A DNA stretch of 64,000 nt from Hyunsoonleella sp. 2307UL5-6. GTDB lineage: Bacteria; Bacteroidota; Bacteroidia; Flavobacteriales; Flavobacteriaceae. The stretch covers positions 14,142-78,141 of the forward strand of contig NZ_JBLFEN010000005.1 of assembly GCF_047345485.1 (NCBI RefSeq). Reading direction: 5' to 3'. The translations under genes were made by a program, and so were the position numbers. Below the pieces are notes generated by a model. It was given only the letters and a program-made list of their open reading frames with translations. It had not been told where the DNA came from and searched no databases. Within the stretch, counting starts at the first letter, position 1; each line of letters starts with the position of its first letter. Positions 1 to 56,470 of this stretch are shown piece by piece.

Positions 1-1131
1 CTACTCTAAATATTTCGATACCACAATCTATCCAGTGCAATAATACATCTAAACATTCATTCCACAGTGCTTTGTAATCTTCGCTTTCCCAATATATAGG
101 TAAAATATCTTGGTATTTTTTAGGCGGATTTTCAGCATATTGTACCGTACCATCTGGTCGCCATTTAAACCATTTAGGATGTGTTTTTACCCACGGATGG
201 TCTGGTGCTGCTTGTAACGCATAATCCATAGCAATTTCCATACCCTGCACTTTGGCCTCATTTACCAAATCTTTAAAATCTTCAAGACTTCCCAATTGTG
301 GATGAATGGCTTTATGGCCACCGTGTTGCGAACCTACGCCCCATGTAGAGCCAACATCACCATCTTTAGCTTCGGTTGTATTATTTTTTCCTTTACGATT
401 TACTTCTCCGATAGGATGAATAGGGGGCAGATACACTACATCGAACCCCATGTTTTTAATACGAGGCAAAAGTGTTATACAGTCTTTAAAAGTACCGTGA
501 ACTCCTTGTTCTTTTGAAGCAGATCGTGGAAAAAACTCATACCACGTGCTAAATCTCGCTTTTTTTCTATCTACGTATACCTTGTATGCATTTGAAGTAT
601 TTTCGAGAATTTTTACGGGATTATTATAAAAAATATCATGAAGTTTGTCTGAAACTGCTTCGTTTATAGCTTCACCATACGCATCTTCATTTTTAAAAAT
701 GATTTCAAGATGTTTTAAATATGCTTTATCTTCTTTTGAAATACCTTTTTTTAGTAATTGACTAATATACTCTGCACCCTCAAGTAATTCAGAACGTACA
801 TATTGTCCATCTTCAATTTTTCTTATGGTTCCATGCTGCCAATTTAATGCATAATCTACCCAAGCTTCAACTTTATAAGTGTAAAATCCTTGTTTTTTTA
901 CTGTAAAAACGGCTTGCCATTCGTTATTAAAATCTAATGACATTCTAGTCTCAGTCCATTTTTTTTCATTGTCGTGCTTACATAAAACAGAGGCACTTAA
1001 AACATCATGTCCGTCGGATAAAATAAAAGCTCTAATATTAACAACTTCGTTTACTACTCGTTTTATATAAAATTCACCACAATTTACACTTGGCGACACA
1101 TGATCTATTACAACTCGTTTTTGGTTTTGCA
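1..1131 (-). CDS. glgE: alpha-1,4-glucan:maltose-1-phosphate maltosyltransferase (GlgE-like, GH13), N-terminal 377 aa; the 3' end runs off the window
   Basis: The reverse-strand ORF starts MQNQKRVVIDHVSPSVNCGEFYIKRV at 1131 and continues to the window edge. It contains the GlgE-typical 'STWYEFFPRS' motif and an alpha-amylase catalytic-domain start (GFDVVYLPPIHPIG). Confidence 0.7.
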
Positions 1132-1164
1132 TTTCTATTAATTATAAAAAAATAAGGTTATGTT

Positions 1165-2430
1165 TTAAATTATAGTGCCTTTAGGAATAGTTGCTCCGTT
1201 TTTAACAACAACAATACCATCTCTTACACAATACGTATCCGTTTCAGAGTCTTCTAAATGCGCACCACCTTTTATTCTAACATCATCACCAATACGACAG
1301 TTTTTATCTAGAATACAGTTTTTTATAAAACAGCGCTCTCCAATACCCATTAAATTTTCAATTTTGTTGTTTTGCATATCTTCTAGGGATTCGTAGTAAT
1401 CTGCTCCCATCATATATGTATTAATTACGGTAGATTCTTTTCCTATTCTAGAACGAATACCAATAACTGATTTTTCAATTTTTGAGGCACTAATAATACA
1501 GCCTTCTGAGACTACAGCTCTATCTAAAGCAGTTCCAGCTATTTTTGTGGTGGGTAGCATTCTAGCATGTGTGTAAATTCGCTTATCTCTATTGTATAAA
1601 TCAAATTTAGGAATATCATCAGTCAATCCTAAATTGGCTTCAAAAAAGGATTCTATAGTTCCTATATCTGTCCAATACCCTTCATACTGATAACTCAGTG
1701 TTTTGTGAGAATCAATAGATTGTGGGATAATTTCTTTTCCAAAATCAATGGTATCAGGATTTTTCATTAATTCTACCAATAACTCTCTATTAAATACATA
1801 AATACCCATAGAAGCTAGATAATTACGTCCTTGAGACTTCATTTCACTACTTACCTCAGATGTCCAATCTGGTAATAAGCTAGAATCTGGTTTTTCTACA
1901 AACGAGGTAATAATATTTTCGTCATTGGCTTTTAATATTCCAAAACCAGTAGCATCTTTGGCATTAACAGGAATAGTTGCAATAGAAATTTCAGCACCAC
2001 TTTCTTCATGTGCTTCAATCATTTTATCATAGTCCATTTGATACAATTGGTCTCCAGATAATATCAGTGCATATTCAAAATCATGTTGTAAAAAATGGTG
2101 CATACTTTGCCTTACTGCATCTGCTGTTCCTTGAAACCAAGTTTTACTTTCTGGAGTTTGTTCTGCAGCTAATACATCAACAAAGGCACTACTAAAAAAA
2201 CTAAAATGATAGGTGTTTTTAATATGTTTATTTAAACCTGCAGAATTAAATTGTGTTAATACAAAAATACGTTTGATGTCTGCATTTATACAGTTTGAAA
2301 TAGGAATATCTACCAATCTGTATTTTCCTGCTATGGATACTGCTGGCTTAGAGCGTCGGTCTGTTAAAGGATATAGTCTAGACCCTTGACCTCCACCGAG
2401 TACAATAGATAAAACTTTGTTATTAATCAT
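1165..2430 (-). CDS. glgC: glucose-1-phosphate adenylyltransferase
   Basis: 421 aa. The N-terminal LGGGQGSRLYPLT nucleotide-binding motif and the C-terminal left-handed beta-helix region are present. Confidence 0.9.
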   Translation of the reverse strand: MINNKVLSIVLGGGQGSRLYPLTDRRSKPAVSIAGKYRLVDIPISNCINADIKRIFVLTQFNSAGLNKHIKNTYHFSFFSSAFVDVLAAEQTPESKTWFQGTADAVRQSMHHFLQHDFEYALILSGDQLYQMDYDKMIEAHEESGAEISIATIPVNAKDATGFGILKANDENIITSFVEKPDSSLLPDWTSEVSSEMKSQGRNYLASMGIYVFNRELLVELMKNPDTIDFGKEIIPQSIDSHKTLSYQYEGYWTDIGTIESFFEANLGLTDDIPKFDLYNRDKRIYTHARMLPTTKIAGTALDRAVVSEGCIISASKIEKSVIGIRSRIGKESTVINTYMMGADYYESLEDMQNNKIENLMGIGERCFIKNCILDKNCRIGDDVRIKGGAHLEDSETDTYCVRDGIVVVKNGATIPKGTII

Positions 2431-2456
2431 ATTACATTAGTTATTTAGTTGAATTT

Positions 2457-3659
2457 TTATAGTAGTGATTTGTAAAGCGCTTCTGTTTGTTTAGCAATGG
2501 CTATCCAATCAAAATAATCTTCCACACGTTTTCTTCCTTTTGTAGCCATAGATGTTCTTAAAACTTTATCAGCAATTACTGTATTAACACCGTTTGCTAA
2601 ATCTCTAGAAAATTTATCAGGATCTATAGGTTCAAAAGGCGCTTCATTTTGTTGTTCTAGCGGCACCAAAACACCTGTTTCACCATCTACAACAACCTCC
2701 TTTATACCTCCTACAGCACTAGCTACAACGGCTGTATTACATGCCATGGCTTCAATATTTATAATTCCAAAAGGTTCATAAATAGAAGGGCAACAAAACA
2801 CATCAGCATGAGAATACAGTTGAATGATTTCTTCTTTAGTTACCATTTTATCAATCCAAATTACATTATCTCTTGTTTTCTGAACTTCGGTTACGGCAGC
2901 TTTCATTTCTTCACCAATTTCTTTTGTGTCTGGCGCACCAGCACAAAGTACTATTTGTGTGTCTTGGTCTATATATTTTATAGCATTTACTAAATGTATA
3001 ATACCTTTTTGCCTTGTAATTCTACCAACAAAAAGTACATAGGGTTTAGCTTTATCAATACCATATGTATCTAAAGTTGCAGTTTCTGAGGTTTGTATGT
3101 ACTGCTGAAGGTTTATACCATTATAAATTACCTTAACCTTATCCTCGTCTACATTAAAATGTTTTATAACATCCTCTTTTGTTTCTTTAGACACCGCAAT
3201 TAAAGCATCAGCCATTTCAATTGCTGTTTTTTCTACCCAAGAAGATGCATCATAACCTCTACCTAACTGTTCTCGTTTCCAAGGTCTTAAAGGCTCTAAA
3301 GAATGTGTTGTTATTACTAGAGGTGTACCATAACATAGTTTTGATATAATTCCTGCAAAATGAGCATACCAAGTGTGGCAATGTACTACATCTGCATCAA
3401 CAGCATCTGCATTCATATGCAAGCCAGTAGTTAGTGTTTTAAATACTGACTTTAATTTATCATCTGCATTTTCAAAAACACCATCTTCAAAAGGAAATCC
3501 TTTTACACTTAAACTAGCGTTTTTTGAATCTTGATCTCCAAAACATCTTACATCTAAATCCATCAATTTTGATAGCTCATCTGCTAAATATTCAACATGT
3601 ACACCAGCACCACCATAAACATAAGGCGGAAATTCTCTTGTATAAAAAAGTGCTTTCAT
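2457..3659 (-). CDS. GT4-family ADP-glucose-dependent glucosyltransferase (short glycogen synthase or GlgM-like alpha-maltose-1-phosphate synthase)
   Basis: 400 aa with a GT-B fold and an N-terminal YGGAGVHVEYL motif. It sits between glgC and glgE, which matches a GlgC-GlgM-GlgE route. Confidence 0.8.
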   Translation of the reverse strand: MKALFYTREFPPYVYGGAGVHVEYLADELSKLMDLDVRCFGDQDSKNASLSVKGFPFEDGVFENADDKLKSVFKTLTTGLHMNADAVDADVVHCHTWYAHFAGIISKLCYGTPLVITTHSLEPLRPWKREQLGRGYDASSWVEKTAIEMADALIAVSKETKEDVIKHFNVDEDKVKVIYNGINLQQYIQTSETATLDTYGIDKAKPYVLFVGRITRQKGIIHLVNAIKYIDQDTQIVLCAGAPDTKEIGEEMKAAVTEVQKTRDNVIWIDKMVTKEEIIQLYSHADVFCCPSIYEPFGIINIEAMACNTAVVASAVGGIKEVVVDGETGVLVPLEQQNEAPFEPIDPDKFSRDLANGVNTVIADKVLRTSMATKGRKRVEDYFDWIAIAKQTEALYKSLL

Positions 3660-4144
3660 ATAAAATTATCTGTCTATTTCTAATTAAAATTCACATAAAA
3701 AAAGGCATTTAAAATACGTATAACACCTTTTTTCAACATTACTTTTAAAAATTATTAATTCATTTTTAGAATATTGTAATCATTTGAGATATAACAAAGT
3801 ATCGCTTAAAAAATGCGAAATTGTTAATAACAATTTTTACGTATTTAAACCAAAACTTAAAACTAAAAGGAAAATTAAACTTAGTATTTTTAGGGCATAC
3901 AACTGTTTCTTACAAATACTGTAAAGACAGAAATGTAAATTACAAAATAAATTATTAACAATTAGAAGGCTAATTATTTTTACAGAAAAAAGAGTGTTTT
4001 TAAATTAAAAAGAAATTATTAATAAAAATTTTGATACAAAAGTTAAAAGTATTACAGATTATTAGCGGTTTATTTCAAATTGATGAATAAAATGAAAACA
4101 GATTTGATAAATGCTAAGACTTATCCAAAATATAGCCATATAAC

Positions 4145-4215
4145 GTGTAGCTATAACGTCGTTTCTTAAAGCTTTTACTGCTTCTGTAGAAATAATTTTT
4201 CGTACTCCTGCGAAG
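4145..4215. repeat. about 52-nt degenerate duplicate of the lepA 3' coding region, lying in the intergenic spacer
   Basis: gctataacgtcgtttcttaaagcttttactgcttctgtagaaataatttttcg aligns at about 85% identity to lepA 4423-4476 (gctgttacgtctttacgtaaggcttttactgtttctctagaaataatttttgc). Confidence 0.5.
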
Positions 4216-4284
4216 GCAGTAATGTTTAATATCGCTTAAATTATATACAAAACGCTATGAAATTGCAGTCTTAGTAGTATTGAA

Positions 4285-6081
4285 TTAATCATTCAACTTC
4301 AAAACCGCCATAAACGCCTGTTGAGGTATCTCTACATTACCCACTTGACGCATACGTTTTTTACCTTTTTTCTGCTTTTCAAGAAGCTTACGCTTACGCG
4401 AAATATCACCACCATAACATTTAGCTGTTACGTCTTTACGTAAGGCTTTTACTGTTTCTCTAGAAATAATTTTTGCCCCAATAGCCGCTTGAATAGGAAT
4501 ATCAAATTGCTGACGCGGAATTAACTCTTTCAACTTTTCACACATCTTTTTACCTATATACTGCGCGTTATCGGCGTGTATTAATGCCGAAAGCGCATCC
4601 ACAGATTGTGCATTTAGTAAAATATCTAAACGTACTAATTTTGATGGTTTCATCCCGATTGGATGGTAATCAAAAGAAGCGTAGCCTTTAGAAACCGTTT
4701 TTAATCTGTCATAAAAATCAAAAACAATTTCGGCTAGTGGCATTTCAAATGTTAATTCTACACGCTCAGTAGTTAAATAGGTTTGATTGATAATAAGACC
4801 TCGTTTTTCAATACAAAGTGACATCACATTACCCACAAAGTCTGATTTTGTAATAATAGTCGCTTTAATAAAAGGCTCTTCTACCCGGTTTAAGGTTGAA
4901 GGTTCTGGTAAATCAGATGGGTTATTTACAATGATGATTTCGTCTGGAGTTTTATTGGTAAACGCGTGATAGGAAACGTTAGGCACCGTAGTAATCACCG
5001 TCATATCAAACTCGCGTTCTAAACGTTCTTGGATAATTTCCATATGAAGCATCCCCAAGAATCCACAACGAAACCCAAAGCCTAACGCTGCAGAACTTTC
5101 TGGTTGAAACACTAAAGAGGCATCATTTAATTGTAACTTCTCCATAGAGGCACGAAGCTCTTCGTAATCCTCAGTATCCACGGGATAAATTCCAGCAAAA
5201 ACCATGGGTTTTACATCCTCAAAACCTTCAACAATATTAGTGGTTGGTTTTTCAAAATCGGTAATAGTATCTCCAACTTTTACTTCTTTAGCCGTTTTTA
5301 TACCTGTAATTAAATAGCCTACATCACCAGTTTTTACGCTTTGTTTTGCAACTTGGTTTAATTTTAAAGTACCAACCTCATCTGCGTAATATTCTTTATC
5401 TGTAGCAACAAATTTAATTTTTTGTCCTTTTTTAATTTCACCATTAAATACTCTAAAATAGGTTTCTATACCACGAAAGGTATTGTAAACCGAATCAAAA
5501 ATTAAAGCTTGTAATGGCGCATTTGGATCGCCTTCTGGTGCCGGCACACGTTCTATAATGGCTTTTAAAATATTATCCACACCAAAACCTGTTTTTCCAC
5601 TTGCGTGAATCACTTCTTCGGGATCACAACCTAATAAATCTACAATATCATCGGTAACCTCTTCAGGGTTGGCACTTGGTAAATCTACTTTATTCAATAC
5701 AGGAATTATTTCCAAATCGTTTTCTAAAGCTAAATATAAGTTTGAAATCGTTTGCGCTTGTATACTTTGTGCAGCATCTACAATCAACAGCGCCCCTTCA
5801 CAAGCCGCAATAGAACGGGATACTTCATAAGAGAAATCTACGTGTCCTGGTGTATCAATTAAGTTTAAAACATACTTTTCACCTTCAAACTCGTAATCCA
5901 TCTGGATGGCGTGCGACTTGATGGTAATACCACGTTCGCGCTCCAAATCCATACTATCTAACAGTTGCGCTTGTTGCTCTCTGGCGGTTACCGAACCTGT
6001 GTAATCCAACAAACGGTCTGCAAGTGTACTTTTTCCGTGATCAATATGTGCAATAATGCAAAAATTCCTGATGTTCTTCAT
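4285..6081 (-). CDS. lepA: translation elongation factor 4 (LepA)
   Basis: [25 protein letters not shown] GTPase G1 motif, DTPGHVDF G3 motif, and a 598-aa length. The six-frame ORF has a 32-codon upstream in-frame extension, judged non-coding. Confidence 0.92.
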
Positions 6082-6263
6082 AGTCAAAATATTGCCGTTT
6101 AAACAGCGATTGCAAAGATAGTTAAATATGTTTGTGTATGGAATAACTAAAAGCATCTTAATTCTTGCAGTTGGCACTCCAAATTTGCAGTTTACAAGAA
6201 AGTGGTTTTAAAAAGAATTTTATGGGTGTTTTTTTGTGGTAGGAATTTTTAAATTTACCACGG

Positions 6264-8126
6264 ATGAAGATAGTATCTTATTTATTAGTATTTCTGTTTT
6301 TAGGAGTTTATTGTTATGCCCAAGATATTGAGGTATTACCAGCGCAACCTTGGGAGAGGTTGGTTGAAATGAATTCAAATAAAAAAAATCCAATCCGTAA
6401 ATGGGGAGATAGTATTCATGTAGGCATCGAGGGGCTTTATAAAACTTCAGATTCTTTGTTAATATCTAAAATAGTTAAAAAACTAGATAGTATAACTAAA
6501 ACTGCAAGTATTCAGTTGACAAACATGAATAAATCTAATTTAAAAATTAAGTTTTTAGATACCTATATTAAAGATAAATATAACCCTATCAGCACTACCC
6601 ATTCAAAAAATTGGTACAACGCAAACAGAGAAATTTATAGAGCTGAACTTTACATCTACATCATAGAAAAGACAGATTTAGAAATTAAAAATGAACTAGA
6701 AAATAAAATTGCAGGAATGTTGGTTGAAGGATATCTTGTTTATCCATCTCGAATAAAGAAAAGAGAAAGTATTTTTAATCCCATCACGCCAAGTTCTTTA
6801 AAAACAGGAGCTTTAAACTCTGGAGATATGTCTATCATAAAAGAGGTCTATAAAGAGGGTTTTAAAAAACGTTTGCAGCAAGCAAATCTGCAATTTTCGT
6901 ATATTATAGATGATATAGAAAATAATAAAATTAGGATAAGAGACAGGTCGTTATGGTGGGTAAAAAATCCAATAGCCGTTATCTTTTTACCAGCTTTAAT
7001 TTTAGGCTTATTTTTTTTAATCATAACTATAAAAATAAATAATCTCATAACTTCAATCATTAAAACACCTTTTTTAAAACTCTTTATAATAGCTTTTATA
7101 AGTTTCTTTTTTTTAGGAATATTGATGATCTTCGCGATTTCATTATTTGGTTATTTAACAATTCCAAATGATTATTCTAAAGTACCTTATGTAAGAGGGG
7201 AAACTATACAATTTACATTAGTGGCAATGTTAACTTTGTTTAGCTATCTAATTTTTTTCAGATTTATGGAACTAAAAATAAGGGAATCTTCACAAAACAT
7301 CCTTTTAAAAACGGGATGGATCTTTTTATCCACAGGATTTTTACCGTTTCTACTGATTTCAGGTTTAGTCTTTATCATTTTGGCAAAGAAAGAAATTCAA
7401 AGTGATCAGGAAGATTACACTATTTTATCATATATTTTTTTAGTTGGAATGGTTGTCGCTTCATTGAGAGCCTTAATAAGTTATTTCATCTTCAAAGAAC
7501 GAAATTTAATCGTAGAAAACGAAACCAAACTCTCAAAACTAAGAGAGCTAAAATCTAAAGCAGAATTAAAATCTTTACAATCCCAAATAAACCCACATTT
7601 CCTATACAACTCTTTAAATTCTATTGCAAGTTTAGCGCCAATAGATGCTGTTAAAACCCAAAAAATGGCACATTCTTTATCCGATTTGTTTAAGTATTCC
7701 ATAAACCGAAAAGGCAAAGAAATGAGTACGGTTAAAGATGAAATAGAGATGGTAACATCGTATTTAAATATTGAAAAAATACGTTTTGGAAACCGTTTAC
7801 AGTTTAATATCAACGTTGATGAAACGCTCTTAAATCATGAAATCCCTTTATTTTTAATTCAGCCCTTAGTAGAAAACGCCGTAAAACATGGTGTGTCTCA
7901 AAATGAAGGCGAGGGTAACATTAGTTTAAATATTGAAAAAGAAGCAAATCAGTTAGTCATTTCTGTAAGCGATAATGGACCCGATTTTCCAGAAGGTTTA
8001 GTCAGCGGTCATGGCTTACAAACCGTTTATGATTTATTACGTTTAAGTTACGGCGATAAAGCCGCTATAAACTGGACGAATATCCCAGAAAAAGTAATTA
8101 GTATCACCATACCTGATACCGTTTAA
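6264..8126 (+). CDS. membrane sensor histidine kinase (LytS/YehU-type, His_kinase + HATPase_c)
   Basis: Signal peptide, a periplasmic domain and multiple TM helices. The H-box is LQSQINPHFLYNSLNSI. A C-terminal ATPase domain is present, and the gene is immediately followed by a LytTR regulator. Confidence 0.85.
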   Translation: MKIVSYLLVFLFLGVYCYAQDIEVLPAQPWERLVEMNSNKKNPIRKWGDSIHVGIEGLYKTSDSLLISKIVKKLDSITKTASIQLTNMNKSNLKIKFLDTYIKDKYNPISTTHSKNWYNANREIYRAELYIYIIEKTDLEIKNELENKIAGMLVEGYLVYPSRIKKRESIFNPITPSSLKTGALNSGDMSIIKEVYKEGFKKRLQQANLQFSYIIDDIENNKIRIRDRSLWWVKNPIAVIFLPALILGLFFLIITIKINNLITSIIKTPFLKLFIIAFISFFFLGILMIFAISLFGYLTIPNDYSKVPYVRGETIQFTLVAMLTLFSYLIFFRFMELKIRESSQNILLKTGWIFLSTGFLPFLLISGLVFIILAKKEIQSDQEDYTILSYIFLVGMVVASLRALISYFIFKERNLIVENETKLSKLRELKSKAELKSLQSQINPHFLYNSLNSIASLAPIDAVKTQKMAHSLSDLFKYSINRKGKEMSTVKDEIEMVTSYLNIEKIRFGNRLQFNINVDETLLNHEIPLFLIQPLVENAVKHGVSQNEGEGNISLNIEKEANQLVISVSDNGPDFPEGLVSGHGLQTVYDLLRLSYGDKAAINWTNIPEKVISITIPDTV

Positions 8127-8127
8127 T

Positions 8128-8889
8128 ATGACTACGACCTATACAACCATAATTATAGACGATGAAGCGCCAGCAAGATTGGGTTTAGAAAACTTGCTTA
8201 AAGCATTCCCTGAAACGTTTCAGGTTATTGATACAGCCCAAAATGTAACCGAAGCCAAAGAAAAAATAGAACGCTTAAACCCAGATATTATTTTTTTAGA
8301 TATTGAAATGCCCGCGCAAACGGGGTTTGATTTATTAGCACAATTAAAAACAATACCTATTGTGGTGTTTTGTACCGCTTATAATCAATATGCTTTAGAA
8401 GCTTTTGAAACTAATAGTATCGATTATTTAGTAAAACCTGTAAAGGTAGAGCGTCTGCAAAAAACAGTAGAAAAATTAAAAACCTTTACTAAGAGTAAAT
8501 CTTCAGAAGAAATTCTATCTATTTTAAAGGATATTTCGAATAAAAAAGCGGTTAAAAAAATGACCTCGATAACCGTAAAGAAAAACGACAAACTCATTTT
8601 TATAAAACTAGAAGACATCGCTTTTTTTGAAGCCGATAATAATTATACCACCATACACTGCGACGCTGAAAACTACCTAAGTACAGAATCTATTTCTGCT
8701 TTAGACCAAAAACTACCTGATAATTTTTTGAGGATTCACCGTGGGATCATTATTAATAAAGATTACGTAAATAATATTCAAAAATATTTTAATAGTCGAT
8801 TTATAATTTCATTGAATAACAAAAAGGAAAACCAAGTTACTTCGGGTAGAAGTTATAATGAGGTTATAAAAAAATGGATACGTGATTAG
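8128..8889 (+). CDS. LytTR-family two-component response regulator
   Basis: Receiver domain (IIDDE...D at FLDIEMP) plus a C-terminal LytTR DNA-binding domain. There is a 1-nt gap after the kinase gene. Confidence 0.9.
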   Translation: MTTTYTTIIIDDEAPARLGLENLLKAFPETFQVIDTAQNVTEAKEKIERLNPDIIFLDIEMPAQTGFDLLAQLKTIPIVVFCTAYNQYALEAFETNSIDYLVKPVKVERLQKTVEKLKTFTKSKSSEEILSILKDISNKKAVKKMTSITVKKNDKLIFIKLEDIAFFEADNNYTTIHCDAENYLSTESISALDQKLPDNFLRIHRGIIINKDYVNNIQKYFNSRFIISLNNKKENQVTSGRSYNEVIKKWIRD

Positions 8890-9006
8890 TCTCATACTAT
8901 CTTAATTGTTTGAACTTATAAAGTTTTGAGATGTATATATTATTATTTAAAGGAACTGAGTTATGCAATACTTTAAAATAAATCTCGCTTAAAAATATGA
9001 TATTCA

Positions 9007-9037
9007 AACCTCACAGGTTTTAAAAACCTATGAGGTC
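9007..9037. repeat. family-A palindromic element (degenerate copy): aacctcacaggttttaaaaacctatgaggtc
   Basis: Perfect or near-perfect inverted repeat CCTCACAGG / CCTGTGAGG around an A/T loop. It lies downstream of the LytTR gene and is followed by a T-run. Confidence 0.7.
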
Positions 9038-9091
9038 TTTTCAGTTCTTGGCTAGAACTTTATTATTTTTGACTAACAGCAGTTATATAAA

Positions 9092-9493
9092 ATGTTAAAA
9101 ACCAAACAAGACATCATCAATAAAATACACTTAATAATTTCGGTTTTAATTGTGGTGCCAGTATCTTTCGTATATGGTTTTGATCCCGATTCACAATTTG
9201 ATATTCATTTAAATACCATTGATGAGCATAACTTTTTTAAAGCCATTATGGGTTTGTATTTAGGCTTTTCTACACTTTGGGTTTTAGGAATTTTTAAAGC
9301 AAGTTACTTAAAACTTGCATTACTAAGCAACATGATTTTTATGCTAGGATTGGGTTTTGGACGCATACTTAGTTTAGCTATAGATGGTACGCCCACGTCT
9401 GGATATATATTTGGTACTATTGGCGAATTAGTGCTAGGGTTTTATGGTATTTGGATATTAAAATTAAGCCAACAAAGCACCACAAATTCCTAA
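9092..9493 (+). CDS. small integral membrane protein (DUF4345-like)
   Basis: 133 aa with four predicted TM helices and no catalytic motifs. Confidence 0.55.
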   Translation: MLKTKQDIINKIHLIISVLIVVPVSFVYGFDPDSQFDIHLNTIDEHNFFKAIMGLYLGFSTLWVLGIFKASYLKLALLSNMIFMLGLGFGRILSLAIDGTPTSGYIFGTIGELVLGFYGIWILKLSQQSTTNS

Positions 9494-9667
9494 ACTTACT
9501 ATAAGATATACTGCAGCTAAAATAAAGAAGACTTTTGCTGCTTTTTTGTTTTTCTTTAATAATAACGCTCCTATTATTGCAAGTAGGATTGCTGGCCCTA
9601 ACATAATGGCTGCAAAAAAATACACCAAACCATCTAAATTCATATTTGGATTTAAAAGCGCTGTCAT
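9464..9667 (-). CDS. tiny two-TM membrane protein (paralog of the next gene)
   Basis: 67 aa. Shares the ...IVSLGICGALLA C-terminus pattern with the adjacent 74-aa ORF (IVGLGLCGVLMY). Confidence 0.45.
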   Translation of the reverse strand: MTALLNPNMNLDGLVYFFAAIMLGPAILLAIIGALLLKKNKKAAKVFFILAAVYLIVSLGICGALLA

Positions 9668-10226: not shown

Positions 10227-11618
10227 TTATATCTCATTTCTAAGTTCCTCCAAACGTGTTTTTTTATCATCTCGATAAAACAAATTCATGGTTTCAAAAG
10301 GGATAATTTTATTGTCTTTATCCACAATATGCACACAGGATTTTTTTATGGCGCGTACATCAAAGTTATAAGCATCAATAAATTGCATAATAATGATACG
10401 AAATAAATTATCGTAACCCAAGTTTGGCGCATCAATATTTGGCAAGCAGCACATAATGCTTTTCAGATTTTCTTCGGCAACCTCAACCGAATTTCCTGTG
10501 CTAAATAACTCAATCATTTTGTCCTGTAATTGTGAGTCTTGTTCGTAAATAATGGTATTTTTACTATTATCTAGCAAATCATTTGGGTTAATATAACGCG
10601 TTAAAGGGAACACCTCATCATCCAATTTCAAAGCATAACCCATCACCAAGGCATCAGGATTGCAAGGTACGGGTAGTAAATCATCTGGATTAAAAATATC
10701 GGTTTGTTCCATTATTTTTCGGCGCACTTCGGTAAGTGTCATTCTATCGGTTTCAGGATTAAAATGCTCTAAACGACCCGCAATTTGCGTAGGTTGCAGC
10801 GTTACACCACGCAAACATTTTTGTTTTAAAGCATAATCAATAATTTTCCCTATTTCATGGTCGTTCAAACCTTTTTGAAGCGTTACCACCAACGTCGTTG
10901 ATAGGTTTACAGCATTCAAATTAGCAATGGCTTGCTCACGAATATCATTCAAATCCGCACCACGAAGTTCGCGCAACACGCTATTTTCAAACGAGTCAAA
11001 CTGCAAATAAATTTCAAAATCTGGCGCGTAGGTTTTTAGTCGTTCCGCGAAAGCGCTATCCTTTGCAATTTTAATGCCGTTGGTGTTCAACATTAAATGC
11101 CTAATTGGGAGCGATTTTGCATAATCCATAATCTCCCAAAACTGCGGATGAATGGTGGGTTCGCCACCCGAAATTTGTACCACATCAGGCTCTTTTTCGT
11201 TCCTAACAATTGTGTCTAACATTGCTTTTACCTCGTCTAAAGTGCGGTGCCTGCCATAGGTTGGCGATGAGCCCGCGTAACAGGTTGGGCAGGTTAAATT
11301 ACAACGGTCTGTAACCTCCACAACCGTTAAACAAGAATGCTGCTCATGGTCGGGGCACAATCCGCAATCATAAGGACAACCATAATGGGTTTGCGTGTTA
11401 AATTTATATGGCGTTTCACTTGGTTTGTTGTAGTTTCTAATATTTTTGTAATACTCAATATCATCCGCAATTAACACCTTTGAGTTTCCGTGCTCGTTGC
11501 AACGTTTCAGCATGTACACATTGCCATTTTCAAAAACAATTTTGGCATCTACACGCTTTAAACACTCGTGGCAGAGACTTAATGTAAAATCGTAATAGGT
11601 GTATTTTCTAACTGGCAT
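10227..11618 (-). CDS. radical SAM enzyme with N-terminal Cys-rich extension
   Basis: CNLTCPTCYA (CxxxCxxC) core motif preceded by CHECLKR...C..H and CPYDCGLCPDHEQHSC Cys/His clusters. 463 aa. Sits in an apparent operon with lgt. Confidence 0.85.
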   Translation of the reverse strand: MPVRKYTYYDFTLSLCHECLKRVDAKIVFENGNVYMLKRCNEHGNSKVLIADDIEYYKNIRNYNKPSETPYKFNTQTHYGCPYDCGLCPDHEQHSCLTVVEVTDRCNLTCPTCYAGSSPTYGRHRTLDEVKAMLDTIVRNEKEPDVVQISGGEPTIHPQFWEIMDYAKSLPIRHLMLNTNGIKIAKDSAFAERLKTYAPDFEIYLQFDSFENSVLRELRGADLNDIREQAIANLNAVNLSTTLVVTLQKGLNDHEIGKIIDYALKQKCLRGVTLQPTQIAGRLEHFNPETDRMTLTEVRRKIMEQTDIFNPDDLLPVPCNPDALVMGYALKLDDEVFPLTRYINPNDLLDNSKNTIIYEQDSQLQDKMIELFSTGNSVEVAEENLKSIMCCLPNIDAPNLGYDNLFRIIIMQFIDAYNFDVRAIKKSCVHIVDKDNKIIPFETMNLFYRDDKKTRLEELRNEI

Positions 11619-16066: not shown

Positions 16067-16503
16067 TTTTTTGTGACACACACCCCTTACTCCCCTCTTT
16101 TTAGAGGGGAAACTCATACCTAACAGTTTTAGCACATTACAGACTACGCTAGCTTAATTCTTAAAAAACATGTACTAGATTTTTATTTGGGCAAATGGCA
16201 AGCCACCGCGCTATCCGCTGTATCTTTTTAGAACGTCATAGCCAGTGCGAATAACGTGGCTATCTACTCCAAGTAGTGTCTAGCATATTAAATAGTGCCA
16301 ATTTTTTCTAAAAAGGATGCCGCTACTATCGCTTTAGCGGGTGTCTGCTAGTTTTGTTTTATGCCTGTAAGCCTTGTTTTACTTGGATAGCTGTTTTCAT
16401 TTAGACAATTAAAAAATTGCCCATTATATAATTGTGTTTTCCTGCGAAGGTTTATAATTTAAGACATATAGTTGAATGAGAATAACATATTACAAAAACT
16501 AAA

Positions 16504-16534
16504 GACCTCACAGGTTTCTAAAACCTGTGAGGTC
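16504..16534. repeat. family-A palindromic element gacctcacaggtttctaaaacctgtgaggtc
   Basis: Same inverted repeat as the other copies. Located 60 nt downstream of the 218-aa gene on the minus strand. Confidence 0.8.
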
Positions 16535-16596
16535 TCTTTTATATTTTTGTAAAACAGTTTTAAAATCGGTGTTTAACACCTATAATGTTGCAGTAA

Positions 16597-17214
16597 TTAA
16601 AGTGGTTTAATACGAAAATCGGTGGATTTATCATCTTCATAATAAATATTTTCAGTGTCAATACGTATACCTTTTTTGGTTATTTCTACTTTGGCGCGTC
16701 GTCCAAAAACGTAAATAAAATAGTAAGGCTTATAAAAATCGTAAAGCGATTTTAAAAAGGCAATGATTAAGTTTAAAGGCTCAATTAAAGGCGTGCATTT
16801 TAGTTGTATGGCAGCCTCCTTTTCCTTCCATGTTTCCCAATCTTTAACAGAGGTGTTATCTTTACCTTCCCAAAATTTATGATTATCTTCTTGTAGGCCC
16901 ATAAAAGAAAACTTCCAGTCTTCAATATCAAACCAATCTAGGCCACCAAGCATAAAGTAAAACTTTTTGTTTACCAAAAAAGAATGTAAATCAAAACACA
17001 TGTAATTATCGTTATAATCTTGGTATTGATGCCATTCTAAAGCCTCTAATTGCGGATAATTTTTAAACACTTGCTGGAAAAACCGTTTTATAAATTCCAA
17101 TTCTTGGTGTTGGTCGCCATAACCACCAAAATGATAATAATAAGCTTTTAAATCTTCAAGAATTTGTTGTGGGTCGTTACTTTTACAAGCCACATCATAA
17201 GCGCTTTCAGTCAT
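16597..17214 (-). CDS. hypothetical protein (Trp/Tyr-rich) in an operon with the Type IIL RM enzyme
   Basis: The ORF runs to 17253, but the M at 17214 (MTESAYDV) leaves a 4-nt gap after the upstream stop, whereas the longer form overlaps by 47 nt. No recognisable domain. Confidence 0.5.
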   Translation of the reverse strand: MTESAYDVACKSNDPQQILEDLKAYYYHFGGYGDQHQELEFIKRFFQQVFKNYPQLEALEWHQYQDYNDNYMCFDLHSFLVNKKFYFMLGGLDWFDIEDWKFSFMGLQEDNHKFWEGKDNTSVKDWETWKEKEAAIQLKCTPLIEPLNLIIAFLKSLYDFYKPYYFIYVFGRRAKVEITKKGIRIDTENIYYEDDKSTDFRIKPL

Positions 17215-17605
17215 TGTTAAAAGGGATAAATTTAGAATTTGTTTTTTCCTCAATTTTTAATCGAGATGCCGGAAAACCGTTGCCATTCATCCAGGATTTA
17301 TAGTCTATTTCCTGAAGATAATCTTGTGCGGTAGGAATAAATTTTCCGCCAAAATCTTCTAGAATATGCTGTTCTGCAATGGCTTTTGTCGATACTTTTT
17401 TGCCATCGGCATTAATAATAAAAACACCAAAAACGCGCTCTATAACATGGTTTACAAACCAACTGTTGTGGGTTAAGGCTCTGTGACGGTTATCGGCAAA
17501 AACAGATTTGCTATCGTCTAGAAAGTTATGGATGTCTATATAATCTTCAAAAATGCCGCCAAAGGTTTTAACGCTACTAAAGGCGTGAATCATGGGTTTG
17601 GACAT
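17207..17605 (-). CDS. hypothetical protein, 132 aa, in an operon with the Type IIL RM enzyme
   Basis: Starts 20 nt after the RM gene stop on the same strand. No recognisable motif. Confidence 0.5.
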   Translation of the reverse strand: MSKPMIHAFSSVKTFGGIFEDYIDIHNFLDDSKSVFADNRHRALTHNSWFVNHVIERVFGVFIINADGKKVSTKAIAEQHILEDFGGKFIPTAQDYLQEIDYKSWMNGNGFPASRLKIEEKTNSKFIPFNND

Positions 17606-17625
17606 GGTTTTTTCGGTATTAAATG

Positions 17626-20349
17626 TTACGTTTTCTTTTTACTGTTCAATAACGGTGCGGTGTATTGGTTATACAACTCAAACAAAAATTCAATTCTGGT
17701 ATTTTCGTTAGTAAAAGCTTGTGGGCGGTAGCATAAATCTACAGCTTTATCTAGTGCTTGGTGCGCTTTTACCAGTTTTGGTGGCATAGTGAGCGGATGG
17801 TACAAATCTGCCAAACTACTCTCAGGAAACTCTAAACGCACATCTAAAACCTGTTGCGCTTTGGTTGCTACGTTTTTCTTGTTTTTGTCGCTTGGGTCTT
17901 TGGGCCATGGGTAGTTGTTGTAAACTAGATTGTTTGAATATCTAAAATCACTTTTAAGTTTACCTGCAACAGTTCGTATCCAATTATTATGCATCAGTGA
18001 TTGCAGAATTCCAAATTGATATTTTGTTGCATCTGGCAAACCATAAGCACTATCTGCTAGAATAGTTTCTTTAGAAATATAACCTATTGGAAGATAATTT
18101 CTTTTATGTGATGAAACCCTTGGTATTAAAAGATAATTACTTGTAGGTTGTCTTAAATCTCCAAATAAGTATGGTGTTTTAGATTTAGAATTTACTGATT
18201 TGCTTTTAGCATTTTCACGAAATTGTTTACAACGGTTAATTCTTTCTATTAAATATGGTGATTCCCTAATGATCTTAGGGCTAACATTTAAGAGCCAAAA
18301 GCAATATCTCCATTTGTTATTTAGCATTTCGTAAGATCCACCATATTTTTTGATGTAATTTTTTAATTCAGGTTCATTTTTTAATAGATTCTTTTTCTCG
18401 TCTAGACTTAAAAGTAAATTTCCGTCATCATAAGGTATATTTCCTCTTATCATTTTTTGGGTTTGACAAATCGGATTTCTAGTCTTTTCAATAAAGATGT
18501 TTTTTCCATTGACGAGATAAGGATTAATATTTTTTGCCTTAATTTCAAATGGCTCTCCATTTATGTCTTGATAATCATATAATCTTTTTTCTTTATTTAT
18601 TGTGGAAAAACCAATAATCACACAATGAACCGCAGCTTTACCTTTTGCATCATTTGTCCAATTAAATGTTCTATGGGCAAAATTAATTTTTAAGCCCATT
18701 TTGTTTATGATTTGAGACCATAAAATTGACACTTGTTCTCCTTGACTTATCGAGTTTGTAGAAACAAAAGCTGTATCAATTTTGGTTTTCATCATGAATT
18801 TAGCTGCTAAATAATACCAAGCTGCTACGTAATCAAGTTTGCCATGATTAATATTCTCATCAAAAGCCATATTCATATCTTCAACTTGTGTTTTGGTCTT
18901 CATCGCAGCCCCTATAAACGGCGGATTCCCAATAATATAAGACAGTTCGTTTTTAGCCACTACGGTTTCCCAATCTATTCTTAAGGAATTTCCGTGTACA
19001 ATTTTAGCAGCTTTTTTAAGCGGTAAACGCGCAAAATATTGCCCAAACTCTTCACTTACGCGCATATTCATTTGGTGGTCTATCAACCACATGGCTACTT
19101 CGGCTATTTTGCTGGCAAACTCGTCGTACTCAATGCCATAAAATTGGTCTACGTCTAGCCATAAAATGCTTTCAATATTTGTGGCTATTTGGCTTTTAAA
19201 CAGTTCGCGTAAAATATCAATTTCTAAAAGGCGCAATTCGCGGTAGGTAATAATTAAAAAATTACCGCTACCACAGGCAGGATCTAAAAATTTTAAGGTG
19301 GAAAGTTTATAATGAAATTCCTTTAGTTTTTTGGTGTTCGATTTTATTTTCTCGAATTCTGCCCGCAATTCGTCCAGAAACAACGGTTTTATAAGTTTAA
19401 AAATATTTTTCTCTGAGGTGTAATGGGCGCCTAAATTGCGGCGTTCCTCAGGATTCATCACACTTTGAAACAAGGAGCCGAAAATGGCTGGTGATATTTT
19501 TCCCCAATCCAGTGCCGAGGCTTCTAGCAAAATACTACGCATATTTGCATTAAAGGCTGCAATGGGTAATGGCTCTTCAAACAGTTTGCCATTTACATAC
19601 GGAAATTGGTTGAGGTGTTCATCTAAGTTTGTAAGTCGGGTGTCTTTTGGCGTGTTTAGTACTTGAAAAAATTGCGCCATGAGTGCGCCTAAATCGCTAC
19701 CATCTTCGTTGGTTTTAAGTTCTACAAATTCTTTAAAGGTGTTGCGCTCAAAAATACTAGTATCATCGGCAAAAAGTATAAATAATAAACGCACTAAATA
19801 TACTTCTAGATGATGCCCTTGGTAGCCAAAGGTTTCGAGTTGGTCGTGCAACTTACCCATTAATTCGGCAGCTTTTATATTTACAGGGTCTTCTTCTTGA
19901 AACGTGCGTTTTTGGTAGCCTGCTATAAAACCAAATAGTTTGACGTTTTTGTAGAGTTCGGCTACTGGAAACTCGTGTTCTGTGGCGTCGTCTAAATTGT
20001 ATAGTTTTAATCTGGCAAAATCTGATACTAAAATATATTTTGGTAATTCGTGCTCTTTAAGTCCGGGAAAATAATCGGTGGCTTGTGTGTATGCTTTTTC
20101 TAAATCTTTATCTTTCGATTTGTGTTCTACTAGCAGCGTGCCTTTCCAGAATAAATCTATAAATCCTTGATGACCGCTTAATTTTTTTACTGGTGCTTCA
20201 AACGTTGCAACGCGCCTTCTGGAAATGCCAAACACGTTAAAAAAGTCGTTCCAGAAGCTATCTTTTTCGGCACGTTCTCTGGTTTCGTCTGCCCATTCGT
20301 TAGAGAATTTTAAGGCTCTGTCTTTAATCTCGTTCCAGCTTAATGCCAT
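17626..20349 (-). CDS. MmeI-family Type IIL restriction-modification enzyme (endonuclease + N6-adenine methyltransferase + target-recognition domain in one polypeptide)
   Basis: The N-terminus MALSWNEIKDRALKFSNEW...IDLFWKGTLLVEHK reproduces the MmeI start and its D-x9-E-x-K nuclease motif. Central gamma-class MTase motifs DPACGSGNFL (I) and NPPF (IV) are present. 907 aa. Confidence 0.9.
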   Translation of the reverse strand: MALSWNEIKDRALKFSNEWADETRERAEKDSFWNDFFNVFGISRRRVATFEAPVKKLSGHQGFIDLFWKGTLLVEHKSKDKDLEKAYTQATDYFPGLKEHELPKYILVSDFARLKLYNLDDATEHEFPVAELYKNVKLFGFIAGYQKRTFQEEDPVNIKAAELMGKLHDQLETFGYQGHHLEVYLVRLLFILFADDTSIFERNTFKEFVELKTNEDGSDLGALMAQFFQVLNTPKDTRLTNLDEHLNQFPYVNGKLFEEPLPIAAFNANMRSILLEASALDWGKISPAIFGSLFQSVMNPEERRNLGAHYTSEKNIFKLIKPLFLDELRAEFEKIKSNTKKLKEFHYKLSTLKFLDPACGSGNFLIITYRELRLLEIDILRELFKSQIATNIESILWLDVDQFYGIEYDEFASKIAEVAMWLIDHQMNMRVSEEFGQYFARLPLKKAAKIVHGNSLRIDWETVVAKNELSYIIGNPPFIGAAMKTKTQVEDMNMAFDENINHGKLDYVAAWYYLAAKFMMKTKIDTAFVSTNSISQGEQVSILWSQIINKMGLKINFAHRTFNWTNDAKGKAAVHCVIIGFSTINKEKRLYDYQDINGEPFEIKAKNINPYLVNGKNIFIEKTRNPICQTQKMIRGNIPYDDGNLLLSLDEKKNLLKNEPELKNYIKKYGGSYEMLNNKWRYCFWLLNVSPKIIRESPYLIERINRCKQFRENAKSKSVNSKSKTPYLFGDLRQPTSNYLLIPRVSSHKRNYLPIGYISKETILADSAYGLPDATKYQFGILQSLMHNNWIRTVAGKLKSDFRYSNNLVYNNYPWPKDPSDKNKKNVATKAQQVLDVRLEFPESSLADLYHPLTMPPKLVKAHQALDKAVDLCYRPQAFTNENTRIEFLFELYNQYTAPLLNSKKKT

Positions 20350-20448
20350 ATAAAAAAGGGAGTTATGTTGTATTTACACAAATGTAAGTGATTACTGTAA
20401 GATATAAAACTGACTATTATATTGATTACCAACGTTAGCAAGCACGCC

Positions 20449-20513
20449 CCGCGAGAAGGATTGAACGGCATGTTTGAAATCCCCGACGCAGGAGGGATTG
20501 AGTAGTGAAAGCC
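20449..20513. repeat. family-B repeat, partial copy, inverted relative to 56396-56470
   Basis: ggattgaacggcatgtttgaaatccccgacgcaggagggattgagtagtgaaagcc matches the reverse complement of 56400-56455 with 3 mismatches. Confidence 0.8.
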
Positions 20514-22847: not shown

Positions 22848-23105
22848 ATGTTTGTTTACGTTCTTAGAAGTGATAAAGATGGAAGGTTTTATGTTGGTAT
22901 TACCGCAACTATTGAAAAGCGGTTAAAAGAACATAATGCTGGAAAAACAAAAAGTACTAAAGGATATCGTCCTTGGAAATTGTTTTTCTTTGAAAGTTTT
23001 GATACAAGACAAGAAGCTAGAAAGCGAGAAAAGTATTTAAAAACTGGATATGGAAAACAATGGATAAAAGAAAAATATAATAGGGCCTATAACTCAGTTG
23101 GTTAG
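22848..23105 (+). CDS. small GIY-YIG-domain nuclease (homing-endonuclease-like). The last 8 codons and the stop are encoded by the 5' end of the tRNA gene.
   Basis: YVYVLRSDKDGRFYVGITATIEKRLKEHN...YRPWKLFFFESFDTRQEARKREKYLK carries the GIY...YIG, Arg and Glu core residues. The ORF ends NRAYNSVG-TAG inside the tRNA D-arm. Confidence 0.85.
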   Translation: MFVYVLRSDKDGRFYVGITATIEKRLKEHNAGKTKSTKGYRPWKLFFFESFDTRQEARKREKYLKTGYGKQWIKEKYNRAYNSVG

Positions 23106-23156
23106 AGTATCTGACTCATAATCAGAAAGTCCCTGGTTCGAGCCCAGGTGGGCCCA
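23083..23156 (+). tRNA. tRNA with CAT anticodon (elongator tRNA-Met or lysidine-modified tRNA-Ile2)
   Basis: 74 nt GGGCCTATAACTCAGTTGGTTAGAGTATCTGACTCATAATCAGAAAGTCCCTGGTTCGAGCCCAGGTGGGCCCA. All four stems pair. TTCGAGC T-loop. CCA is not encoded. Confidence 0.85.
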
Positions 23157-23181
23157 CTTTAAAACCCTAAACTTTTTTAGT

Positions 23182-41792: not shown

Positions 41793-41821
41793 CTCCGGAA
41801 ATTTTTTTCGGAGTTTTTTTT
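41793..41821 (+). terminator. rho-independent terminator after accC
   Basis: ctccggaaatttttttcggag hairpin followed by a T8 run. Confidence 0.7.
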
Positions 41822-41874
41822 GGCGCCTGCCTACCTGCGGTATAGCAGGCAGGTTACCCAAGGGTCGGGCTTTC
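41821..41874. repeat. family-B repeat (hairpin gcctgcctacctgcggtatagcaggcagg + gggtcgggctttc)
   Basis: About 85% identical to 56345-56400. The same hairpin occurs in the pseudo-tRNA at 22795-22823. Confidence 0.8.
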
Positions 41875-41897
41875 CGCTATATCTTTTTACGAAGCAG

Positions 41898-41918
41898 TCT
41901 CGAACTTGTTTCGGGATC
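41898..41918. repeat. family-C element tctcgaacttgtttcgggatc
   Basis: Matches 14632-14651. Confidence 0.7.
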
Positions 41919-42208
41919 TCAGTAAGTCATTAACAATTATCCTTAAACATAAAATTCTGATATTTAAAGCTTCGCAAAAAAGATGCCGCTGCAATCCCTA
42001 ACACAATTATCTGCTAGATTATCGGTTTGAAATCTAAGTGACTTTATTTTTGGAGAGTTTCGTTTAACGTTTATGTATATGGAAAGTTGCGTGTTTGAGT
42101 GCGAGGATTTTCCGAAGGAAAATCAGAAGCTAGCAAACAAAGCAACTAACATTGATTAAGCACAAAACAGCAATTTTTTATACACTGTGTTGTGTGTAGT
42201 TTTTTATT

Positions 42209-56273: not shown

Positions 56274-56344
56274 GATGCTATAATTTTTTCAAAAATAGCT
56301 GATTTATGAATTTTAAACTGTTTAGGTAGTGTTAATGTTTTTTT

Positions 56345-56470
56345 TGGCGCCTGCCTACCTGCGGCATTGCAGGCAGGTTAACCACAAGGGGTCGGGCTTT
56401 CACTACTCAATCCCTACTTCGTCGGGGATTTCAAACATGCCGTTCAATCCCTAACGCGGGTTTACCTGCC
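56345..56470. repeat. family-B repeat, longest copy (hairpin gcctgcctacctgcggcattgcaggcagg + gggtcgggctttc + ggatttcaaacatgccgttcaatcc module)
   Basis: The 5' half matches 41821-41874. The 3' half matches the reverse complement of 20449-20513. Confidence 0.8.

Follow-up and report, generated by a model that had tools for sequence, protein, structure and literature searches.

Two small genes of no obvious function directly follow the gene for a restriction-modification (RM) enzyme of the MmeI family in the flavobacterium Hyunsoonleella sp. 2307UL5-6, and the question raised by this locus is whether they belong functionally to the enzyme or only share its transcription unit. MmeI-family enzymes work alone, cleaving about 20/18 nt from an asymmetric site and modifying a single strand with N6-methyladenine (m6A). 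The window analysed, meaning the whole stretch of DNA under study, comprises 64,000 nt of contig NZ_JBLFEN010000005.1 (positions 14,142 to 78,141), and an initial annotation of it had proposed that the small genes were possible accessory defence factors within an inserted defence island. Gene 1 encodes the MmeI-family enzyme, gene 2 a protein of the DUF6915 family and gene 3 the usual partner of DUF6915. With moderate confidence, we read the locus as an MmeI enzyme and an independent mobile cassette of DUF6915 and its partner, very probably transcribed together but separate in function, an RNA-related role in genetic conflict being the likeliest for the cassette.

Distribution of the DUF6915 pair and its link to MmeI

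DUF6915 loci were gathered from species-representative genomes (30 loci), viral contigs of IMG/VR (80 loci), metagenome contigs, and annotated phages and plasmids. Lineages were defined as clusters at 80% identity (n = 51), with a finer dereplication at 95% (n = 82). An MmeI gene was present within 6-10 kb of DUF6915 in 1/51 lineages, that formed by this window and the contigs L001-L003 of a close relative. Conversely, the nearest 80 metagenomic homologues of MmeI (identity 56-72%) were inspected, 64 of them with 700 nt or more of sequence downstream, and all lacked DUF6915 and gene 3 within 4 kb. None of the families in PADLOC-DB v2 matched either small protein at E<=1, and our literature search on accessory genes of MmeI found nothing relevant. 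The pair is generally unlinked to MmeI, and the idea that its genes assist the RM enzyme, for which the initial annotation had suggested both a defence-model search and a co-occurrence survey, is largely refuted: no defence model was matched, and recurrence of the association across lineages was not found. That annotation had also named what would speak against it; homologues lying away from RM genes were, in a screen that covered enzymes of the MmeI family, essentially what we observed, and conservation as core genes was not; the small genes are a mobile pair typical of phages.

The pairing itself is conserved. Neighbouring open reading frames (ORFs) of about 129 loci were clustered by BLAST, and in 86 of these loci the partner was found directly 3' of DUF6915 in the same orientation, corresponding to 30/51 lineages at 80% identity and 49/82 at 95%. 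The partners fell into two BLAST clusters, with median gaps to DUF6915 of 2 nt and 19 nt, and an independent jackhmmer run placed the partner directly downstream in 50 of the 80 IMG/VR loci. Cultured phages infecting hosts from three phyla carry the pair: Sinorhizobium phage phiM12 (gp145-146), Streptomyces phage Daubenski (genes 123-124) and the Ralstonia jumbo phage RsoM2USA (gp139-138). It was also found in metagenome-assembled genomes (MAGs) of Phycisphaerales, proteobacteria and Woesearchaeota, and tblastn matches to DUF6915 came from 127 phage records and from 216 plasmids, including 119 conjugative ones.

Elsewhere in Bacteroidota the pair was located 18-44 nt behind genes for leucyl-tRNA synthetase, an amino-acid permease, gamma-glutamyltranspeptidase (GGT) or a protein with a type IX secretion system tail; at other loci it adjoined a Y1 or DDE transposase, or stood alone. 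The possibility of a promoterless cassette that always inserts just past a stop codon found partial support: about 5 of 11 Bacteroidota loci fit it, and the rest have a gap of at least 100 nt or a divergent neighbour. In locus L007 the transposase adjoining the pair is of the Y1 type (IS200-type, or RAYT, a transposase associated with repetitive extragenic palindromic [REP] sequences). On a Bacteroidota contig (L045, positions 1-6678) a cluster encoding DUF4132, DUF5682, a MoxR-like AAA_5 protein and DUF5691 is oriented divergently to the pair, which is followed by DUF4240; the combination with DUF4240 was seen again in L046, beside a DDE transposase.

The downstream position is not always occupied by the same protein. 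On three plasmids DUF6878 replaces the gene 3 family as the neighbour of DUF6915, and in Planctomycetales the position is taken by a third partner of about 168 aa (cluster 17), for which no tie to gene 3 or to any Pfam or PHROG family was found. Homology between gene 3 and DUF6878 was rejected, because jackhmmer gave no link and hhalign a probability of 0.1%, although both contain hairpin-like motifs of the form aromatic-x-G/D-x-G/N-D. DUF6915 was found with no adjacent partner in MAGs of the candidate phyla radiation (CPR) and Acidobacteria (L030, L032 and L038). Two proteobacterial MAGs carry two tandem partner paralogues after DUF6915 (L026, positions 10402-11479; L028, positions 10392-11452).

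The three genes and their transcription

The 907-aa product of gene 1 was confirmed as the MmeI-like single-chain RM enzyme that had been annotated. A single ORF contains the five Pfam MmeI domains, each over its full length, with matches to MmeI_N (PF20464, E = 4.7e-46) and MmeI_Mtase (PF20473, E = 8.9e-96) in a Pfam scan, and with MmeI_hel (PF20465), MmeI_TRD (PF20466, profile positions 2-206 of 207) and MmeI_C (PF20467) uninterrupted; the PADLOC model REase_MTase_IIG scored 1212 bits. An N-terminal nuclease motif of the PD-(D/E)xK type, D65-x9-E75-x-K77, occupies residues 65-77 (DLFWKGTLLVEHK), and the methyltransferase motifs DPACGSGNFL (motif I) and NPPF (motif IV) are at residues 356 and 475. 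A disrupted target recognition domain (TRD), which would have spoken against the annotation, was not observed, given the nearly complete PF20466 match and the open frame. Gene 1 is, as far as its domains and motifs tell, an intact and ordinary family member with nothing unusual in the enzyme. It shares with Type IIL/IIG relatives the five-domain architecture, the catalytic motifs and a TRD that is the most variable part, and differs from them in the two trailing genes, which are not a family feature. Between the window and L001 (positions 6877-9606) the TRD is 41% identical, in comparison with 89-94% for the N-terminal and helical domains, so that the recognition specificity has probably been switched and differs between the two.

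Gene 2 is a full-length, high-scoring member of DUF6915 (PF21866; E = 3e-37; 127.2 bits, the gathering cut-off being 27; profile covered from position 2 to 102 of 102) and of phrog_8143 (E = 3.6e-37). Neither of these families, nor DUF6878 (PF21798), was mentioned in the literature searched. Homologues favour the start at MSKP, K3 and P4 being nearly invariant, whereas the NCBI annotation gives a 128-aa form. Identity is 50-70% from Bacteroidota to phages of Bacillus, Sinorhizobium and Ralstonia, and about 30 residues are invariant, among them H7, H26, D30, D38, R40, H41, R42, H46, N47, E78, H80, E83 and D84. The AlphaFold2 (AF2) model is helical (predicted local distance difference test, pLDDT, 79), and a structure search with it returned no fold match. 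The last residue is nearly always Asp (D132 in the window; L001-L129), although the 15-40 residues before it are hypervariable, in sequence as well as in length, and it is present with or without a partner gene overlapping the stop codon. Phage partner proteins terminate in Y-x-H-D. The terminal Asp of DUF6915 is possibly a feature for recognition of the terminal carboxylate.

Gene 3 had no direct match to any Pfam, NCBIfam, PHROG or PADLOC model. The initial statement that both small genes resemble nothing recognisable is correct for gene 3, in this sense of a direct library match, and wrong for gene 2. A word-indexed search returned 6 relatives only and an exhaustive profile search 266 cluster representatives at E<=1e-3; iterative searches over the fetched loci tied gene 3, via intermediate sequences, to a much larger family, whose phage members match phrog_9564/10375. 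Invariant among bacterial, archaeal and phage members are W61, Q63, Y64, Y67, N68, D69, F74, F170 and G171; the motifs held in common are W-x-Q-Y-x-x-Y-(F)-N-D-(G/N)-(D/E) and F-G-(D/E/R)-(H/R), the latter followed by a beta-hairpin near the C-terminus. The window protein bears the signatures W61-x-Q-Y-x-D-Y-N-D and F170-G171. We place gene 3, as a diverged member from Bacteroidota, in this unnamed family, which is represented in phages by phrog_9564/10375; it has the same motifs and the same position after DUF6915 as the phage proteins, and differs in belonging to a longer Bacteroidota subfamily in which FGRRA replaces FG(D/E)H. Its AF2 model (pLDDT 84.6; predicted template modelling score, pTM, 0.83) had no fold match in PDB or BFVD, profile searches against PDB were empty, and nothing informative came from Pfam scans of 10 long or fused representatives of the family and of the complete alignment A2 (16 members). 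The protein had been described as rich in Trp and Tyr, which is accurate for Tyr (8.3%) and inaccurate for Trp (2.9%), Phe being the second enriched residue (8.8%).

The arrangement as a tight three-gene operon was also confirmed, the minus-strand ORFs being separated by a 20-nt gap and then joined by an 8-nt overlap of the gene 3 ATG with the gene 2 stop codon (AATGACTGA), with a single terminator hairpin at the end (Table 1). An alternative TTG start at 17253 would extend gene 3 to 218 aa. The three genes are very probably on a single transcript, because of this spacing, the hairpin after gene 3, the -7 box predicted upstream of MmeI and the lack of an internal terminator, no terminator-like site having been found between genes 1 and 2 or 2 and 3. 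The box follows TAnnTTTG, which we take to be the -7 consensus of Bacteroidetes promoters. A scan for sigma-70 promoters found fewer sites than in shuffled sequence, the model being uninformative for Bacteroidota.

Table 1. Coordinates of the operon and of repeats and RNA elements in the window.
Feature	Position	Strand	Remarks
Gene 1, MmeI-family Type IIL/IIG RM enzyme	17626-20349	-	907-aa ORF
Gene 2, DUF6915 protein	17207-17605	-	132 aa; begins 20 nt past the MmeI stop
Gene 3, DUF6915 partner	16597-17214	-	205 aa from ATG
Candidate Bacteroidetes-type -7 promoter box, TACATTTG (TAnnTTTG)	20379-20386	-	30 nt 5' of the MmeI ATG; predicted by reading the sequence
Perfect 15-bp hairpin	16501-16537		3' of gene 3; T-runs on both strands; probable operon terminator
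Flavo-1-RNA-like element	16200-16353	-	41.2 bits, against an Rfam gathering score of 42; E = 2e-7 in a local search
Second Flavo-1 RNA	41859-42006	-	above threshold
Palindrome family, 7 intergenic copies of about 35 nt each	9004, 14523, 16501, 44984, 46842, 48646, 49980		AGACCTCACAGGTTT-loop-AAACCTGTGAGGTCT
66-nt repeat in the LolE-MmeI spacer	20448-20513		single other copy inverted at 56395-56460, 92% identity, 36 kb away

Age of the trio and the surrounding repeats

Age and selection were assessed by comparing the window with L001, where the gene order is glyoxalase, RbfA, LolE/FtsX, MmeI, DUF6915, gene 3 and Dus, and the trio occupies the same place. Synonymous divergence (dS) was 0.96-1.04 for the trio and 0.82-1.2 for the flanking core genes, with glyoxalase as an outlier (2.07). 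As the dS of the trio equals that of its flanks, the three genes have been inherited vertically and are older than the split from L001; the trio is old at this locus and not a recent insertion. All three genes are under purifying selection, with ratios of non-synonymous to synonymous divergence (dN/dS) of 0.216 for MmeI, 0.205 for gene 3 and 0.044 for DUF6915, the last value being at the low level of RbfA and Dus.

These results are at odds with the recently inserted defence island of the initial annotation, as are the housekeeping genes that neighbour the operon (LolE/FtsX, RbfA, Dus and Rdx), a GC content near the window mean, and the generic nature of the repeats. The ORF-free 530 bp (16067-16596) that had been placed upstream actually lies 3' of the minus-strand operon, and its GC content, said to be elevated, is 0.351, equal to that of the operon and barely above the window mean of 0.328; a local peak of 0.435 is explained by the Flavo-1-like element there. 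The hairpin, which as a repeat copy spans 16503-16535, and the 66-nt repeat had been taken to bracket the operon, and their role as boundary repeats marking an island was rejected by the copies elsewhere in the window. The copy of the palindrome at 16501-16537 scores as a terminator on both strands, and since the family recurs across the window and is terminator-like in both directions it does not represent an island boundary; it looks like a species-wide REP or terminator-like element.

The 66-nt repeat had no Rfam match, and its fold z-score was only -2.1. A spacer of 10 nt separates its distant copy from a 48-nt repeat (56337-56384), the other copy of which (41813-41860) abuts the Flavo-1 RNA at 41859, and the two repeats may form a composite family of small-RNA or REP-like elements. 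Beside glyoxalase and RbfA, L001 carries genes for a HindIII-like endonuclease, a helix-turn-helix (HTH) controller-like protein, an N6/N4 methyltransferase and a Rep protein (REP_ORF2-G2P) at positions 718-4236, and the counterpart side of the window has a GIY-YIG ORF (22848-23105) overlapping a tRNA-Met gene (23083-23157). This side may be a variable integration hot spot.

Possible roles of the pair

In the arrangement we favour, MmeI would restrict unmodified incoming DNA and hemi-methylate its own sites, with nuclease, gamma-class m6A methyltransferase and TRD in one chain. Genes 2 and 3 would be a mobile two-gene cassette, made up of DUF6915 and its usual downstream partner, with its main home in large phages; in cellular genomes it would land at scattered sites, often a few tens of nt past an unrelated gene of the same orientation. 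In the Hyunsoonleella lineage that gene would have been MmeI, and the arrangement has since been inherited vertically. The two proteins would act as a complex in which DUF6915 is the strongly constrained subunit, probably metal-binding, catalytic or ligand-binding, and the partner may be the fast-evolving, exchangeable one.

Our best guess for the activity, derived from gene neighbourhoods, is a role in RNA/tRNA or nucleotide metabolism in the course of genetic conflict, such as repair or protection against an RNA-targeting attack. Among the commonest neighbours in phage loci, a metallophosphoesterase was found directly 5' of the pair in 25 loci and a second type in 14 loci (either cluster in 36 loci, 7/51 lineages), RNA ligases of the T4 Rnl1 type or PF09414 were near it in 28 loci, a P-loop kinase resembling polynucleotide kinase (AAA_33) in 18 loci, and an ATP-dependent DNA ligase in 12 loci. 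Metallophosphoesterase, kinase and ligase together make up the classical heal-and-seal set with which phages repair RNA (PMC7824862; further background in PMC2190708). Among individual phages, Tsamsa encodes an RNA ligase (gp182), gp183 and DUF6915 (gp184) in that order, with genes for salvage of nicotinamide adenine dinucleotide (NAD) close by; phiM12 has a metallophosphatase two genes 5' of the pair; and in Daubenski the flanks of the pair hold a tRNA array and the gene for a Ro-like RNA-binding protein. On a Deinococcus plasmid DUF6915 has AbiEii and an RNA ligase near it, and plasmid copies are located among genes for an orphan C5-methyltransferase, single-stranded DNA-binding protein, DUF736 and toxin-antitoxin (TA) systems, a composition like that of the anti-defence islands of leading regions (PMC11541004). 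Gad2 was within 6 kb of DUF6915 in 13 loci (2 lineages). On a 202-kb phage-like contig (L047, positions 5419-7501) DUF6915 follows Gad2, which is of the anti-Gabija family, and DUF5662.

Several points weigh against this account. After dereplication, neighbours of the RNA-repair type occur in only 9/51 lineages, and the association, given here in raw counts, is a lead that may in part reflect early-gene regions shared among large phages. Co-transcription was deduced from missing terminator and promoter motifs, and the screen for RM genes around DUF6915 covered enzymes of the MmeI family only. As the three genes have remained side by side since the divergence from L001, some local functional coupling with MmeI is possible. 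A more far-reaching version, which we hold only tentatively, is that the pair would be an unrecognised two-protein module of large phages whose target is a nucleotide signal or RNA/tRNA that has been damaged or attacked. As a new counter-defence factor it could process ends or give protection beside metallophosphoesterase-kinase-ligase sets; in Hyunsoonleella it would have been captured into the MmeI operon, and its interests and those of the host may now be coupled.

An autonomous module of the TA or abortive-infection type that merely adjoins the RM gene, with DUF6915 as an enzymatic toxin and the variable downstream proteins as antitoxins, is unlikely in our estimate. It would account for the overlap of the small genes, the patchy mobile distribution over phages, plasmids and transposase-adjacent sites, the combination of one conserved component with exchangeable partners (gene 3, DUF6878 and the planctomycete protein), and the plasmid copies among TA genes, one with AbiEii beside it. 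However, no PADLOC model matched, Bacteroidota copies lie behind housekeeping genes and not in defence islands, and the pair resides within early-gene and RNA-repair clusters of large phages (the T4-like phiM12, the jumbo phage RsoM2USA and Streptomyces phages of about 130 kb), an unusual location for TA genes. The partnerless copies in CPR and Acidobacteria argue against a toxin role, and both the identity kept across phyla and phages and the very low dN/dS of DUF6915 are atypical for toxins.

That the pair became a true accessory of MmeI in this lineage, a second-line module sensing inhibition of the RM enzyme or dealing with whatever evades it, as PrrC does with EcoprrI, appears improbable. 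The operon-like packing seen both in the window and in the diverged L001-L003, its persistence over a dS of about 1, the similarly elevated dN/dS of partner and MmeI (0.21 and 0.22) and the parallel between the RNA-repair-type associations of the pair in phages and the tRNA theme of PrrC would all suit such an acquisition; against it stand the 50/51 DUF6915 lineages with no MmeI and the complete lack of the pair around the nearest MmeI homologues, its occurrence at similar spacing behind unrelated housekeeping genes, and the solitary action of MmeI-family enzymes in general. The least probable of the roles considered, to which we give very little credence, is an anti-restriction or control element that delays or dampens restriction by MmeI. 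The phage and plasmid distribution, with plasmid regions resembling leading regions, and neighbours including Gad2, NAD-salvage genes and orphan methyltransferases would agree with it, but an inhibitor long kept and co-transcribed 3' of its target would leave the RM system without effect, the controllers known for RM systems are small HTH proteins encoded upstream, the pair has no association with MmeI elsewhere, and DUF6915, being very highly conserved, does not resemble fast-evolving anti-restriction proteins.

The question of MmeI helper genes is answered negatively, which spares a wet-lab search for an RM accessory system. Few small proteins of large phages are as conserved as DUF6915, which has a specific, fast-evolving partner and is repeatedly a neighbour of RNA-repair and counter-defence genes. 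The module is a well-defined and testable candidate for a new function in phage-host conflict, open to genetics in the cultured phages phiM12, Daubenski and RsoM2USA.

Among known systems, PrrC-EcoprrI resembles this locus in that an RM transcription unit includes, or is followed by, an extra set of non-RM genes. Type I RM loci are the specific and recurrent setting of PrrC, whereas the pair is tied to MmeI in one lineage only, and no sequence or fold similarity joins the two. With Type II TA cassettes the pair shares two small overlapping genes, a scattered mobile distribution and a conserved component with swappable partners; it differs in having no TA-family matches, in that DUF6915 is sometimes alone and far more conserved than typical toxins, and in its place within RNA-repair-type clusters of large phages. 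The phage heal-and-seal clusters (T4 Pnkp/Rnl1; the metallophosphoesterase of the Clostridium thermocellum Pnkp type) differ in that neither protein resembles a ligase, a kinase or a known phosphoesterase, that the window has none of these repair enzymes next to the pair, and that a minority of lineages is involved; the likeness is that several independent phage lineages embed the pair among such genes and tRNA arrays.

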